DNA of 5,276 nt from a virus. Taxonomy: Duplodnaviria; Heunggongvirae; Uroviricota; Caudoviricetes. Below are positions 123-5,087 of this stretch, piece after piece. Under the pieces are notes generated by a model. That model saw only the letters and a list, made by a program, of their open reading frames with translations. It was not told the DNA's origin and did not search any database. The DNA lies in IMG/VR virus record IMGVR_UViG_2534681992_000020, one strand, 5' to 3'. Numbering within the stretch: the first letter of the stretch is position 1; the number at the start of each line of letters is the position of its first letter. Both the position numbers and the translations under genes were made by a program.

Positions 123-329
123 TTAGTGATTCAGGCCGTTGCCGCGTCCGTCGAGAAAAACTTCCACGAGCAAATCACGGGTATAAGTGCGCTCGATGCC
201 GCGATGCAGATAAAGCCGTCCGCGTAAATTAGCTGATGCAGTCCAGGTTCCATCTTTGTGTTTGACCAGCATTCCTGGCATGACCGCACCGCGATTAACG
301 GTCTGCGTTCCGTAATGTTGATGAACCAT
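123..329 (-). CDS. hypothetical small protein (68 aa), early-left operon
   Basis: ATG at 327-329 (minus) with a strong AGGAG (complement of 335-339) 5 nt upstream. The translation has a balanced, protein-like composition, unlike the overlapping alternative-frame ORF 131-364. I do not recognise the family. Confidence 0.5.
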   Translation of the reverse strand: MVHQHYGTQTVNRGAVMPGMLVKHKDGTWTASANLRGRLYLHRGIERTYTRDLLVEVFLDGRGNGLNH

Positions 330-596
330 AAAAACTCCTGCCCGTAAGCTGGGCTGCTGAACAAATAAGGGGTTGCGCAGTATCTGGCGGTGGATGGCCG
401 CCGGTTGTCATAACTAAGTCGCCTCGTTGAAGCAACTGAGGTATGAAGTGTTGAGTTGATTTCAGCTGGTCACACCGACGTTCACGCGTCCGTTTCACCC
501 CTCGCACTCCCCGGAGCCTGCTGAAATTCAAGCTGCGGATCTAAGCGGTCATCGCAACGGTGAATCAGGTGGTTGCCGTATCGTTGTGTTGTTGCG

Positions 597-771: not shown

Positions 772-801
772 GCAAAAGAAAACCCGGCACGGTGGCCGGG
801 T
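772..801 (-). terminator. intrinsic (rho-independent) terminator ending the repressor operon
   Basis: Seven-bp stem ACCCGGC (782-788) paired with GCCGGGT (795-801) around a 6-nt loop. On the minus-strand RNA it is followed by UUUUCUUUUG (complement of 772-781). It begins 5 nt past the stop (806-808) of the 806-1747 gene. The plus-strand side also has a moderately U-rich tail (UAUCUUUAUU), so it may act in both directions. Confidence 0.75.
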
Positions 802-805
802 ATCT

Positions 806-1747
806 TTATTCGAATGGAAGATCTATTTGCCTTTGAGGATTCAACTGTTTTTTTACATGCTCAATTTCGAATATGGTTTTTATGGCATCTCCGATCATAT
901 ATTGAGTTACTTTTAAATCTACAAGTAACATATCACCTTTAGAAAAATTTAAGGTGTTGTTATCAATATCGCTGATGAATTTCTGGTCTTTTATTTCAGC
1001 CAAAAAGCTACTGGCACCATCAGAAAACCGCCACCGGCTTCCTTCATTGAAGGAAATATTTTTAATTTGAAGGGCTTTCTCTACTGTGTACTCTGAAATT
1101 ATTGATTCTGCTGGTAGATTGACTTTGAAATAATGTGCTTCTTGCTTGTTGATCGTCATGAATGTCAAACCATCATCGACAGTAGAGGCAAAGCTGTCAA
1201 TGCCTTCCTGCTCTAATGGCTTACTTATAACTTCTTGTAATGAAGAGCGAAGTTTAATATTTTTATAAAGTTCAATAACGTTACTGTCGTAGATCTCGCT
1301 TTCGTCATCAACAAAGACTTCGATGTTGCTATCAGGCAAATTGTGTAATTTTTTTATTTTCCTTGGACCTATCCATTTTATCAGTTGAATTAGGCCTTTG
1401 CATATTTTTTCTTTAGAACCAGGACAGAGTCCAATAAAAGCAATCAAATTCGCAGCGGCTGTTGCTGAATCGCCGGATAAAAAATCAACAGCCTGTTTGA
1501 ACCAAGATGTAGATGAGGCAACCAGATCTATTCCAAATGAGCCAGCTTTAAATGATGCATTGACTTTTACAGAAACAACAGTCTTGTTTCCGTAGAGAGT
1601 TTTACCGGCTTCCTCTAATGCATCTGATAGTGATAGAAGGGCAGGAGCAAGGTCTCGCACGTTCATTTCATGCGTTTCCAGTGCCGGACCGTCGTATACT
1701 ATCCTGAACTTCATATCATTGGTTTCCGAATTGTTGCCCGCATCCAT
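806..1747 (-). CDS. hypothetical protein (313 aa from ATG 1747; 317 aa if GTG 1759 is used) in the rexAB-equivalent position downstream of the repressor; candidate exclusion/defence gene, function unknown
   Basis: Long uninterrupted minus-strand ORF. The first ATG (1745-1747) follows a GGTGA Shine-Dalgarno-like element by about 9 nt. The gene is visibly AT-rich compared with flanking phage genes. It sits between the repressor stop (1821) and the terminator (782-801), in the same orientation as the repressor and with no terminator in the 1760-1820 spacer. I see no P-loop or other motif I can name. Confidence 0.8.
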   Translation of the reverse strand: MDAGNNSETNDMKFRIVYDGPALETHEMNVRDLAPALLSLSDALEEAGKTLYGNKTVVSVKVNASFKAGSFGIDLVASSTSWFKQAVDFLSGDSATAAANLIAFIGLCPGSKEKICKGLIQLIKWIGPRKIKKLHNLPDSNIEVFVDDESEIYDSNVIELYKNIKLRSSLQEVISKPLEQEGIDSFASTVDDGLTFMTINKQEAHYFKVNLPAESIISEYTVEKALQIKNISFNEGSRWRFSDGASSFLAEIKDQKFISDIDNNTLNFSKGDMLLVDLKVTQYMIGDAIKTIFEIEHVKKQLNPQRQIDLPFE

Positions 1748-1820
1748 TATGGCATTCACCTGATCACATATACAGTTAATTTACGATATTGTCTTAAATC
1801 TTAAAACTTCTATTGTATGG

Positions 1821-2513
1821 CTACCCATGCTTCCTATACGTCTGCGGCATGCTCCCAATAACCTTACCGAAGATGAACACCCGGTTCATCTCGTCTTTCT
1901 CGATCGGGTCCCAAGGTGAGTAGCTCTTGTTATCAGAGATAACCAGCAGCTTATCCTTCATCATTTGCAGACGCTTTACATGGGCTGTGTCGTCGTACAG
2001 AAACGCATAGATACCATCACCGTCGAAAGATTTAACCGTGATATCAACGAACAGCAGATCACCTGGTTCGATCGTTCCTGACATGCTGTCACCACGCACG
2101 TTAATGATGCGGATATTTTCCGCCTTCCTGCCATCGAACATGTGACGAGCATCGTCAAACGAGTACTCAACCGAGCGTAGAACTTCTACAAACTCACGAT
2201 TGATGACACCCGGCCCGGCACTGACTTCTATATCAAGAACGTCAATCTTGAAGTATTTGGAATGGTTGACAGCAGGCTTCCCTGATTGTTGACCGTCATT
2301 TCTCATCGGGCCTATGCCTGATGAGAGCCACTCAGTTCGAACACCCAATGCATTAGCTATTTCAACAATTTTTGTTGAGCCGCGCGCGTTGCCGCTTGTC
2401 AGTCTCCAGATTGTGGGTTGAGCTACGCCAGACGCCTTTGCAAGAGCGCCTTGAGACATTCCAGATTGTTCCATCGCTAGGTTTAAGCAATCAGCAAGAG
2501 TTTCTTTTTTCAT
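1821..2513 (-). CDS. cI: CI-type prophage repressor (N-terminal XRE-family HTH, C-terminal LexA-like S24 autopeptidase)
   Basis: HTH segment SQGALAKASGVAQPTIWRLTSG. Probable Ala-Gly autocleavage site in EVSAGPG. Catalytic serine motif GDSM and lysine motif VKRL, spaced as in LexA and lambda CI. I place the start at ATG 2511-2513 (MKKETL...) because a minus-strand promoter (-35 TTGACC, complement of 2544-2549; -10 TATAAA, complement of 2523-2528) would start transcription at or just before that ATG, giving a leaderless message as for lambda PRM-cI. The ORF track's 2549 start is a TTG with no ribosome-binding site. Confidence 0.9.
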   Translation of the reverse strand: MKKETLADCLNLAMEQSGMSQGALAKASGVAQPTIWRLTSGNARGSTKIVEIANALGVRTEWLSSGIGPMRNDGQQSGKPAVNHSKYFKIDVLDIEVSAGPGVINREFVEVLRSVEYSFDDARHMFDGRKAENIRIINVRGDSMSGTIEPGDLLFVDITVKSFDGDGIYAFLYDDTAHVKRLQMMKDKLLVISDNKSYSPWDPIEKDEMNRVFIFGKVIGSMPQTYRKHG

Positions 2514-2522
2514 AAGTTTTAA

Positions 2523-2607
2523 TTTATACGCTTGCGTATTGATGGTCAAAACACGTTTTGCTATTGATTGGGTTAATACGCATTGCTATTATCTATTCAT
2601 TGCAATA
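2523..2607. promoter_or_regulatory. OR-like operator cluster with divergent promoters (PRM-like leftward, PR-like rightward)
   Basis: Repeats related to the OL sites: ATACGC-tt-GCGTAT palindrome (2526-2539) over the PRM -10; AACACG-tttt-GCTATT (2550-2565) abutting the PRM -35 and overlapping the PR -35; AATACG-catt-GCTATT (2575-2590) overlapping the PR -10; ATTGCAAT palindrome (2599-2606) near the PR +1. PR has -35 TTGATT (2564-2569), a 17-nt spacer and -10 TATTAT (2587-2592). The 2550-2565 site is centred about 43 bp upstream of the predicted PRM start, the position from which lambda CI at OR2 activates PRM. Confidence 0.6.
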
Positions 2608-2875: not shown

Positions 2876-3421
2876 ATGACTATGCAATCACTTACATACC
2901 AACAGACTAGCGGATTTAGCCCGACTGCGGTGATAAATCGTTCTCAAACAAAACAGGCGCCAGGCCACGAAAAAATCCGTGATGCCGTTCGCGCCTGGTC
3001 GGCTGCAGATAATCAGGATGTTGTTGCCGCACTCATTGTGAATGAGTATCGGGAGCAGGGCGGCGGCACCATCGATTTCCCTGATGATGTCAGCCGTGCA
3101 CGCCAGAAGCTGTTCCGCTTCCTCGATAACAAATTCGATTCTGAAAAATACCGAAATAACGTGCGTGAACTGACCCCGGCAATTCTGGCGGTACTACCGC
3201 TGGAATATCGCGGCCACCTGGTTGGGCAGGATAGCTTCATGGCTCGGCTGGCTGAAATGGAAAAGGAACTCAGTGAGGCAAAACAGGCTGTCATTCTCAA
3301 CGCACCACGCCACCAGAAACTGAAGGAGATGAGTGAAGGCATTGTGTCGATGTTTCGTGTGGACCCGGATCTGGCTGGTCCACTGATGGCGATGGTCACC
3401 ACCATGCTGGGGGCAATATGA
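2876..3421 (+). CDS. YdaT-family protein (functional analogue of CII in YdaS/YdaT-type immunity regions)
   Basis: Occupies the cII position immediately after cro. The motifs NEYREQGGGTIDFP and LTPAILAVLPLEYRGHL match, from memory, the conserved core of E. coli YdaT-family proteins. Start is ATG 2876 or 2882; the second has better spacing to the AGG at 2872-2873. Its stop overlaps an in-frame ATG of the next reading frame (ATGA at 3418-3421). Confidence 0.7.
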   Translation: MTMQSLTYQQTSGFSPTAVINRSQTKQAPGHEKIRDAVRAWSAADNQDVVAALIVNEYREQGGGTIDFPDDVSRARQKLFRFLDNKFDSEKYRNNVRELTPAILAVLPLEYRGHLVGQDSFMARLAEMEKELSEAKQAVILNAPRHQKLKEMSEGIVSMFRVDPDLAGPLMAMVTTMLGAI

Positions 3422-3507
3422 CAGGTTCAGAAATGGCGAAAGCCGGTCTGCGCGAACAGAACCGACTTTCAGGTGCAAATCGTAACACACTCATTGCGGG
3501 AGGAATT

Positions 3508-4437
3508 ATGGCAAACACTGCTGAGATATTCAATTTTCCAGTGCCGGATGTGGCACAAAAGGAGCCGCGCGTGGCAGATCTCGATGATGGTTATACGCGC
3601 ATTGCAAATGAGTTGCTGGAAGCTGTAATGCTGGCCGGATTAAAACAGCACCAGCTTCTGGTCTTCCTGGCTGTCATGCGCAAAACATATGGCTTTAATA
3701 AAAAACTGGATTGGGTGAGCAACGAGCAACTTTCCGAATTGACCGGGATATTGCCGCACAAGTGTTCTGCTGCAAAAAGCGTTCTGGTAAAGCGTGGGAT
3801 TCTTATTCAGAGCGGGCGGAATATCGGCATCAATAATGTGGTCAGTGAATGGTCAACATTACCCGAATCAGGTAAGAAAAATAAAGTTTACCTGAAAGAG
3901 GTAAATTTACCTGAGTCAGGTAAGAAAAGTTTACCCAAATCAGGTAAAGGCACTTACCCGAATCAGGTAAACACAAAAGACAAACTAACAAAAGACAATA
4001 TAAAACCTTTTTCGTCCGAGAATTCTGACGAATCCTCTGACCAGCCAGAAAATGCCCTTCCTGTGGTGAAACCGGATGCTGCGATTCAGAGCGGCAGCAA
4101 GTGGGGGACAGCAGAAGACCTGACCGCCGCAGAGTGGATGTTTGACATGGTGAAGACCATCGCGCCATCAGCCAGAAAACCGAATTTTGCAGGGTGGGCT
4201 AACGATATTCGCCTGATGCGTGAACGTGACGGACGTAACCACCGCGACATGTGCGTGCTGTTCCGCTGGGCATGCCAGGACAACTTCTGGTCCGGTAACG
4301 TGCTAAGTCCGGCCAAACTCCGCGACAAGTGGACCCAACTCGAAATCAACCGTAACAAGCAACAGGCTGGCGTGACAGCCGGAAAACCAAAACTCGACCT
4401 GACGAACACTGACTGGATTTACGGGGTGGAGCTATGA
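3508..4437 (+). CDS. O: replication initiation protein O (lambda O family) with a divergent iteron-binding N-terminal domain and a lambda-like C-terminal domain
   Basis: ATG 3508 has a GGAGG (3498-3502) 5 nt upstream. The N-terminus MANTAEIFNF...VADLDDGYTRIANELLEA aligns with lambda O (MTNTAKILNF...VADLDDGYARLSNMLLEA, recalled). The C-terminal ~110 aa (SKWGTAEDLTAAEWMFDMVKTIAPSARKPNFAGWANDIRLMRERDGRNHRDMCVLFRW...WIYGVEL) look almost identical to lambda O as I recall it. Iterons lie inside the gene. The ORF track's 3418 start adds 30 residues with no counterpart in lambda O. Confidence 0.9.
   Translation: MANTAEIFNFPVPDVAQKEPRVADLDDGYTRIANELLEAVMLAGLKQHQLLVFLAVMRKTYGFNKKLDWVSNEQLSELTGILPHKCSAAKSVLVKRGILIQSGRNIGINNVVSEWSTLPESGKKNKVYLKEVNLPESGKKSLPKSGKGTYPNQVNTKDKLTKDNIKPFSSENSDESSDQPENALPVVKPDAAIQSGSKWGTAEDLTAAEWMFDMVKTIAPSARKPNFAGWANDIRLMRERDGRNHRDMCVLFRWACQDNFWSGNVLSPAKLRDKWTQLEINRNKQQAGVTAGKPKLDLTNTDWIYGVEL
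3859..3970. repeat. origin of replication: five iterons (TTACC-N7-GGTAA) followed by an A-rich tract (3971-4013)
   Basis: Iterons at 3859-3876 (ttacccgaatcaggtaag), 3888-3904 (ttacctgaaagaggtaa), 3907-3924 (ttacctgagtcaggtaag), 3931-3949 (ttacccaaatcaggtaaag) and 3954-3970 (ttacccgaatcaggtaa). Each has perfect inverted arms TTACC/GGTAA. They are followed by acacaaaagacaaactaacaaaagacaatataaaacc. This matches lambda ori architecture (iterons plus AT-rich region inside O) but the iteron sequence differs from lambda. Confidence 0.8.
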
Positions 4438-5087
4438 AAAACATCGCCGCACAGATGGTTAATTTTGACCGTGAGCAGATGCGCCGGATCGCCAATAACA
4501 TGCCGGAACAGTACGACGAAAAGCCGCAGGTACAGCAGGTAGCGCAGATTATCAATGGTGTGTTCAGCCAGTTACTGGCAACTTTCCCGGCGAGCCTGGC
4601 TAACCGGGACCAGAATGAACTGAACGAAATCCGCCGCCAGTGGGTTCTGGCTTTCCGGGAAAACGGGATCACCACGATGGAACAGGTTAACGCAGGAATG
4701 CGCGTAGCCCGTCGGCAGAATCGACCATTTCTGCCATCACCCGGGCAGTTTGTTGCATGGTGCCGGGAAGAAGCATCCGTTATCGCCGGACTGCCAAACG
4801 TCAGCGAGCTGGTTGATATGGTTTACGAGTATTGCCGGAAGCGAGGCCTGTATCCGGATGCGGAGTCTTATCCGTGGAAATCAAACGCGCACTACTGGCT
4901 GGTTACCAACCTGTATCAGAACATGCGGGCCAATGCGCTTACTGATGCGGAATTACGCCGTAAGGCCGCAGATGAGCTTGTCCATATGACTGCGAGAATT
5001 AACCGTGGTGAGGCGATCCCTGAACCAGTAAAACAACTTCCTGTCATGGGCGGTAGACCTCTAAATCGTGGTAAGCGTACAGCCTGA
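4434..5087 (+). CDS. P: replication protein P (lambda P, DnaB helicase loader), C-terminally truncated and fused to IS-derived codons
   Basis: The start overlaps the O stop (ATGA at 4434-4437), as in lambda. Residues 1 to about 212 (MKNIAAQMVNFDREQMRRIANNMPEQYDEKPQVQQ...PVMGGRPLNR) match lambda P as I recall it. After codon 212 the sequence departs from lambda (expected AQALAKIAEIKAKFGLKGASV) and reads GKRTA-stop, encoded by the inserted element starting at about 5071. Confidence 0.9.
   Translation: MKNIAAQMVNFDREQMRRIANNMPEQYDEKPQVQQVAQIINGVFSQLLATFPASLANRDQNELNEIRRQWVLAFRENGITTMEQVNAGMRVARRQNRPFLPSPGQFVAWCREEASVIAGLPNVSELVDMVYEYCRKRGLYPDAESYPWKSNAHYWLVTNLYQNMRANALTDAELRRKAADELVHMTARINRGEAIPEPVKQLPVMGGRPLNRGKRTA

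Follow-up and report, generated by a model that had tools for sequence, protein, structure and literature searches.

A PDC-S42 (LAPAL-family) gene beside the cI repressor of a lambdoid phage as a candidate prophage-encoded defence cargo

The stretch of viral DNA analysed here (the window; 5,276 nucleotides, IMG/VR record IMGVR_UViG_2534681992_000020) comes from a lambdoid phage, of which it constitutes the immunity and replication region, and it is 100% identical to a prophage in Escherichia coli strain 2013C-3264, integrated beside dsdC/torI. Downstream of its cI repressor the window carries a gene of 313 amino acids (aa) at 806–1747 on the minus strand, which belongs to the PADLOC family PDC-S42 and which is possibly a prophage-encoded defence cargo beside the repressor, with a mechanism that may be new. 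The chances that this single protein protects the lysogen from other phages, either through abortive infection or through exclusion, appear to us about even. Defence is the most plausible role of the gene because all the alternative cargos of the slot it occupies are PADLOC defence candidates, and because homologues occur beside BstA and a PD-T4-6-like kinase. The proposal of a candidate defence gene, made in a preliminary description of this DNA, is partly supported: the slot cargos and the homologue neighbours favour it as far as the role is concerned, but not with regard to the novelty of the family, which is already PDC-S42. The gene is thus a well-defined, widespread and testable candidate that will hold no surprise for specialists.

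The open reading frame (ORF) occupies 806–1759 on the minus strand, ends with a TAA stop codon at 806–808 and encodes 317 aa when counted from a GTG codon at 1759, or 313 aa when counted from the ATG at 1747. The ATG is the likelier start, since a Shine-Dalgarno motif, AGGTGA (1756–1761, minus strand), lies 8 nt 5' of it, with the GTG falling within that motif, and since it is the 313-aa form that is found in RefSeq WP_000338655.1 (942 nt) and in cluster P0001 with its 276 members; the residue numbers given below follow the 317-aa form. A profile search returned 5,259 representatives (clustered at 50% identity) with E ≤ 1e-3, which leaves no doubt that the gene is real, and 1,711 of them scored E ≤ 1e-30. 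The best 150 matches of this search are nearly all standalone proteins of ~300 aa, and among these 150 there were no domain fusions that would separate a sensor from an effector.

The protein matches the PADLOC PDC-S42 hidden Markov model (HMM) over its full length (E = 3.4e-86, 287.5 bits; residues 15–316 against profile positions 3–300 of 302), as it does the PHROG 3243 HMM (E = 1.3e-116; residues 8–314 against 2–293 of 293), whose category is 'unknown function', and it scores 270.4 bits against NCBIfam NF053583 (LAPAL_fam), for which the curated cutoff is 60. PDC-S42, PHROG 3243 and NF053583 are the same family. The LAPAL motif corresponds to DLAPAL at aa 36–41, in which L37 and P39 are invariant and D36, A38, A40 and L41 are conserved in at least 90% of sequences. 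The earlier view that the protein had no family match and was perhaps undescribed therefore has to be abandoned, as its status as a defence candidate is already public through PDC-S42; what is described here of its place beside a prophage repressor, its domain architecture and its exchange as a cassette does not come from the PDC-S42 record. The PDC systems comprise 145 candidates predicted from 'guilt by embedding', chosen on account of a member embedded in a BREX, DISARM or type I restriction-modification (RM) locus (Payne et al., 2024 preprint, 10.1101/2024.01.29.577857). The Pfam scan of the window protein found no domain, no named functional domain emerged from the Pfam, NCBIfam, PHROG and PADLOC scans together, and sequence and profile searches of PDB sequences found no relative with a solved structure.

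Direct evidence of cargo status comes from the comparison with sister phages, to which homology breaks at ~802, just past the stem of a terminator, and at 1821, the cI stop codon. With the same junctions, the slot of PhiR34_1 is empty (121 bp with no gene), that of PhiR47_2 holds a two-gene "GevAT" module, in which PADLOC recognizes GevT and GevA as PDC-M11 A and B (2e-133 and 7e-52), and that of PhiR30_1 holds two hypothetical genes recognized as PDC-M63 B and A (4e-42 and 8e-36). Lambdoid coliphages thus display at least four states of the slot, namely empty, PDC-S42, PDC-M11 (GevAT) and PDC-M63 (window 782–801; L034 2590–2735; L001 3116–4616; L002 3206–4696), and each cargo found in it is a PADLOC phage defence candidate. 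The GevAT module includes an ASCH-domain antitoxin, and the A component of PDC-M63 is DUF6932; literature searches returned nothing relevant on GevA or GevT. Because the junctions at ~802 and 1821 are shared across the sister phages, the terminator can be assigned to the phage backbone and the spacer together with the gene to the cargo, and the empty slot and the two other cargos with identical junctions identify the gene as a horizontally exchanged moron. Acquisition as a moron had been suggested by the preliminary description from base composition, and both the suggestion and its basis are confirmed: the gene has a GC content of 0.377, with 0.34 at third codon positions (GC3), vs 0.46–0.54 and 0.51–0.58 in the neighbouring phage genes (GC/GC3 of cI 0.47/0.51, O 0.49/0.52 and P 0.54/0.58). 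Of 5,426 complete E. coli genomes, 34 carry the allele, always as a single chromosomal copy and with at least 99.6% identity, and among the loci inspected the identical protein stands behind at least three cI alleles, which occur in combination with two distinct cro genes. One of the 34 copies is split by IS1A (STEC388, NZ_CP041425.1 3561499–3563228).

The layout around the cassette is that of a rexAB-equivalent slot, with the order OL/PL – target gene – cI – OR – cro matching OL – rexB – rexA – cI – OR – cro of lambda. The cI-type repressor gene (1821–2513, minus strand; HTH_3 and Peptidase_S24, with the ORF open as far as TTG 2549) has the same orientation as the target gene, and the two are separated by a 73-nt spacer (1748–1820, minus strand) that is AT-rich (28.8% GC), unstructured and part of the exchanged cassette. 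A terminator scan found none in this spacer, and shuffled sequence folds at least as well (z = +1.5). The stop codon of the target gene is immediately followed by a bidirectional intrinsic terminator (782–801), composed of a 7-bp stem with 6 G-C pairs followed by UUUUCUUUU (U-run), with a folding energy of -16.6 kcal/mol (z = -3.8), and this conserved backbone element is also found in phages with other cargo or an empty slot. On the far side lies OL (605–667), with three copies of the operator 8-mer AATAGCAA (615–667) that overlap a PL-like promoter (633–605) directed away from the target gene, while OR (2558–2590) has two copies that overlap a PR-like promoter (2564–2592); the five copies observed in total compare with 0.23 expected by chance. 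The preliminary description had thus correctly recognized a 313-317-aa gene, its rexAB-equivalent slot, its orientation, the lack of a terminator ahead of it and the strong one behind.

This arrangement suggests that the target gene is probably co-transcribed with cI. By analogy with lambda PRM, the likely source of a joint transcript in the lysogen is a PRM-like promoter (TTGACC-17-TAAATT; 2521–2549, minus strand). Read-through from the repressor promoter or promoters into a cargo module that occupies the interval from the cI stop codon to the backbone terminator is probable, so that the protein is predicted to be made in the lysogen. The PRM-like promoter stops just 7 nt short of the RefSeq cI start codon, ATG 2513, and the cI mRNA would therefore be leaderless or near-leaderless, as in lambda.

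Expression from the repressor unit would also suit a non-defence accessory gene of the lysogen, which either modulates induction or the SOS response, with its OB-fold binding single-stranded DNA (ssDNA) or RecA-related partners, or serves as a host-fitness (lysogenic conversion) factor. Such a role is possible but on the unlikely side. The apparent co-transcription with the repressor, the presence of an OB-fold, the recurrence of the family beside repressors and integrases and the failure to find a toxin or enzyme domain all speak in its favor, but the same slot in sister phages holds either defence-candidate cargo or nothing, which makes the gene dispensable for lysogeny. Homologues also stand beside BstA outside prophages, and the PDC families were chosen for their embedding in BREX, DISARM or RM loci, according to the preprint cited above, both of which speak against an accessory role in the lysogen.

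The homologue contexts examined were prophages and phages as well as small islets; in the prophages and phages the gene belongs mostly to the lysogeny or early region or stands at one end of the prophage. In Rac-like prophages of E. coli, P0026 (60% identity) immediately follows an unrelated RacR-type repressor, reads in the same direction and precedes kilR/recET. P0064 (41%) is found downstream of two different S24 repressors, following a 77-aa ORF. The Burkholderia homologue P0114 (38%) lies downstream of a helix-turn-helix repressor in one prophage and in a divergent early region in others, as does P0098. Further afield, ORF19 of Lactobacillus phage A2 (33%) is placed between endolysin and integrase, the homologue of Listeria phage 188 (31.5%) between the repressor block and the integrase, and that of Bifidobacterium phage PMBT6 (27%) adjoins the integrase. 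Two contexts bring the family close to other defence genes. In Acinetobacter, P0105 (41%) resides on a small islet of the chromosome, with a bona fide BstA (PADLOC 4e-115) two genes away; the islet (L008–L012 6001–9067) consists of the LAPAL-family gene, a HIRAN-like protein with a weak PDC-M03B match, a 78-aa ORF and BstA, and is bounded by an HxlR regulator and, in several strains, cysS. In Yersinia, the islet that contains P0034 (59%) is situated at the remnant of an integrase, and in one genome a PD-T4-6-like kinase is encoded close by.

These contexts also bear on the product name 'LAPAL motif-containing putative phage structural protein', which recent PGAP annotation has introduced (e.g. 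NZ_OZ547223.1, NZ_AP038814.1). A virion structural protein has the curated name of NF053583 as its sole argument, and its probability is close to negligible: no homologue lies within a head or tail operon in any context examined, and the nearest approach is one Mu-like locus where the gene comes right behind the Mu F and tail-S genes and borders on early genes in reverse orientation. Structure searches matched no fold of a structural protein, and not all sister phages carry the gene. As there is no head or tail operon context and viable sister phages do without the gene, the name is probably wrong, and its current spread in RefSeq is probably misleading.

The architecture of the protein was examined in two AlphaFold2 models, one of the window protein (predicted local distance difference test, pLDDT, 83.4; predicted TM-score, pTM, 0.69) and one of P0059, a homologue with 40% identity (pLDDT 87.6, pTM 0.76), which agree on three parts. 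The predicted N-terminal domain (aa 16–80; 1520–1714, minus strand) is made up of the strand FRIVYDGPAL, the DLAPAL helix and a beta-hairpin VKVNASFKAGSFGIDL, and this strand-helix-hairpin unit, which contains ASFKAGSFGIDL in addition to the two motifs, is the best conserved portion of the protein, with a mean pairwise identity of 0.57 vs 0.30–0.41 elsewhere. It is followed by a linker and a Gly/Ala-rich hydrophobic helix-loop-helix, and then a basic RKIKK patch (aa 81–131; 1367–1519, minus strand); in the P0059 model the helices span residues 86–96 and 106–113. The middle alpha/beta domain (aa 132–215; 1115–1366, minus strand) is modelled with pLDDT >90 and has no fold assignment. The C-terminal domain (aa 216–306; 842–1114, minus strand; conserved W243, F237, F252, F261, K274 and D276) is predicted to be an OB-fold-like, five-stranded closed beta-barrel that can be superposed on SSB-, PriB- or RPA-type domains. 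Hydrophobic residues, Gly and Pro make up most of the conserved columns of the family, with Asp, Lys and Arg at a few others, and no nuclease, NTPase, hydrolase or other recognizable catalytic motif was found among them.

The hydrophobic segment, whose Kyte-Doolittle maximum over 19 residues is 1.3 in the window protein and 1.54 as the family median, probably does not form a single transmembrane (TM) helix, an option rejected on hydropathy and the P0059 model. This has consequences for the idea that the protein acts in the envelope and excludes superinfecting phages by blocking DNA entry, in the manner of SieA/SieB or HK97 gp15, and not by abortive infection. A position in the lysogeny module could be expected of such a factor, as could a Gly-rich segment of moderate hydrophobicity with a basic patch behind it, but known Sie proteins are small membrane proteins, whereas a protein of ~300 aa, predicted to be soluble and to comprise three domains including an OB-fold, with no signal peptide, lipobox or convincing TM helix and with a hydropathy maximum of 1.3 in a segment broken by charged residues, makes this idea quite improbable.

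The barrel itself, as modelled, resembles those of SSB, PriB, RPA70N, Stn1/Ten1 and RecO, although the sequence identity is just 6–22%, no solved structure is matched at the sequence level and the target domain is acidic. Among the top structural matches are the protein-binding OB domains Rfa1-N and Ten1. The likeness to SSB, PriB, RPA and RecO, together with the proximity of the gene to the gam-bet-exo region and the early-region position in Mu-like prophages, could point to the DNA metabolism of the phage itself, with an SSB-like or recombination accessory protein acting in lytic growth. We regard this as very improbable, given that the gene lies upstream of PL, outside the PL operon and in the repressor transcription unit, that phages isolated as viable and otherwise near-identical lack it or have other genes in its place, that it occurs in non-phage islets and that its OB domain is acidic.

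If the protein is a defence factor of the lysogen, a division into sensor and effector can be tentatively proposed, with a probability that we consider low. The more variable C-terminal OB-fold would, with the middle domain, sense a phage product, either ssDNA or a phage protein, the latter being as likely a ligand as the former in view of the acidity of the OB domain and of the protein-binding OB domains among its top matches. The effector would then consist of the conserved N-terminal domain together with the hydrophobic, Gly-rich helical hairpin, and it possibly oligomerizes and disturbs the membrane. Such a division of labour would be functionally analogous to that of RexA and RexB, in which RexB acts at the membrane for RexA.

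A more specific version of this mechanism draws on EACC1 (PF19953), a family described as having a conserved TM helix with a central patch of small residues, whose C-terminal fragment reportedly forms pores in membranes once proteolysis removes an autoinhibitory part (Kaur et al., 2020; Evans et al., 2025 preprint). Sub-threshold matches to EACC1 were obtained for 4 of 55 family members (including P0112 and P0092) at 13–15 bits, the best being 15.3 bits for P0112 vs a gathering threshold of 23.6, while DUF7946 (PF25678) was matched by 11 of the 55 at 12–14 bits vs a gathering threshold of 27, co-linear from profile position 1 and within the N-terminal domain. Membership in either family was rejected, as matches stayed below threshold throughout the Pfam scans. 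The target family appears to share with EACC1 a hydrophobic helix rich in Gly and small residues and followed by beta-strands, co-linear with EACC1 positions 43–104/107, the reported pore-former, whereas in the target this segment lies inside a multidomain protein of ~300 aa and is modelled as a helical hairpin. No caspase-like protease gene, the partner of EACC1, is directly adjacent at any locus examined. It is conceivable, but decidedly unlikely, that the protein is a self-contained, protease-independent abortive-infection protein and a one-protein functional equivalent of RexA/RexB, in which the OB-fold sensor, with the LAPAL domain, would restrain a distantly EACC1-like Gly-rich membrane-active segment, and binding of a phage product would lift the restraint, so that the protein could oligomerize and permeabilize the membrane. 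If this were true, such a one-protein Rex equivalent would span temperate phages of Proteobacteria, Firmicutes and Actinobacteria.

Several observations weigh against defence of the lysogen and the mechanisms proposed for it. The authors of the PDC set explicitly call its 145 systems untested (Payne et al., 2024), and our literature searches found no experimental evidence for the family under any identifier, nor any paper mentioning PDC-S42, the LAPAL motif, WP_000338655, phrog_3243 or NF053583. Expression in the lysogen is predicted from the layout. At the level of the protein, the net acidic character of the OB domain (pI ~5) argues against simple ssDNA binding, both models place the hydrophobic segment as a helix-loop-helix in a soluble fold and not as a TM element, charged residues interrupt it in the protein of the E. 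coli clade, and the window protein matches neither EACC1 nor DUF7946, the similarities of the family to both lying below the Pfam thresholds in every case. Two genomic contexts are also difficult to reconcile with it. In a Mu-like prophage the homologue precedes Mor in the early region, a place from which no expression in the lysogen would be expected, and P0068 (39% identity) is found between carA and carB in a metagenome-assembled genome, a non-phage operon. The Mu-like homologues (L015 6001–6927 and L026 5001–5906) do not adjoin a repressor in either case, and the timing of expression may therefore differ among phage types. P0068 (L032 5001–5927) overlaps the end of carA by 4 nt, and none of the explanations offered here accounts for the carA/carB context.

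The remainder of the window is occupied by kil (123–329, minus strand), cro (2618–2851), a gene in the cII position (2876–3421), O (3418–4437) and P (4434–5087); an Rfam scan of the window gave no match. The genes in the cro and cII positions are, like those of the Rac prophage, members of the Pfam families YdaS and YdaT, which Pfam labels 'toxins', and since they occur alongside a lambda-like S24 repressor, the immunity region is a mosaic. Between the PL-like promoter and kil there is a 78-aa ORF with a TTG start (295–531, minus strand), for which RefSeq has no annotation and which has no Pfam match. It contains an arginine-rich motif, GVKRTRERR, resembling the RNA-binding motifs of lambdoid N proteins, and the region is 86–90% conserved at the protein level in sister phages, where it is sometimes found inside a longer 'Kil' coding sequence.

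Should the defence role be confirmed, one PADLOC candidate would become a validated system, and the mechanism would probably be new because the protein is without an enzymatic domain. The finding would extend to a very large family (the 5,259 clusters mentioned above) carried by temperate phages of several phyla. The slot between cI and the terminator, as a clean four-state cargo hotspot, represents a convenient natural test bed for prophage-encoded immunity.

Among known systems, the nearest structural relatives bring little specificity. In a Foldseek search against viral models the near-full-length matches were all to uncharacterised proteins, one annotated as DUF6575 (E = 1e-8) and one from Leptospira phage LE1 (Q6NE06, E = 7e-5), in alignments of 313–356 columns with query TM-scores of just 0.34–0.37. 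DUF6575 occurs in one validated anti-phage PD system (Vassallo et al., 2022). By sequence, the window protein gave no match to Pfam DUF6575 or to a PADLOC PD system.

The comparison with BstA and with the rex genes is closer as regards the locus. BstA is a prophage-encoded abortive-infection protein of ~300 aa, located downstream of repressors, and the target gene resembles it in size, in being a single gene and in its site in the lysogeny module of a prophage, with both present in one Acinetobacter islet; unlike BstA, the target protein is without a KilA-N or BstA_C domain. Homology to BstA was rejected, as there was no Pfam or PADLOC BstA match and hhalign gave a probability of 0.1% against the Acinetobacter BstA. 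RexA and RexB of lambda constitute an abortive-infection or exclusion system co-transcribed with cI, and the target locus shares with rexAB the slot, the cI orientation, a short spacer that follows cI without a terminator and a terminator that precedes OL, but has one gene instead of two and no RexB-like multi-pass membrane protein. Homology to RexA and RexB was likewise rejected (hhalign probability 0.13% and 0.09%, with no Pfam or PADLOC Rex match), in agreement with the earlier remark that the protein could not be matched to RexA. The locus resembles the lambda rex and BstA loci in its position and probably in its logic, but its gene belongs to neither family.

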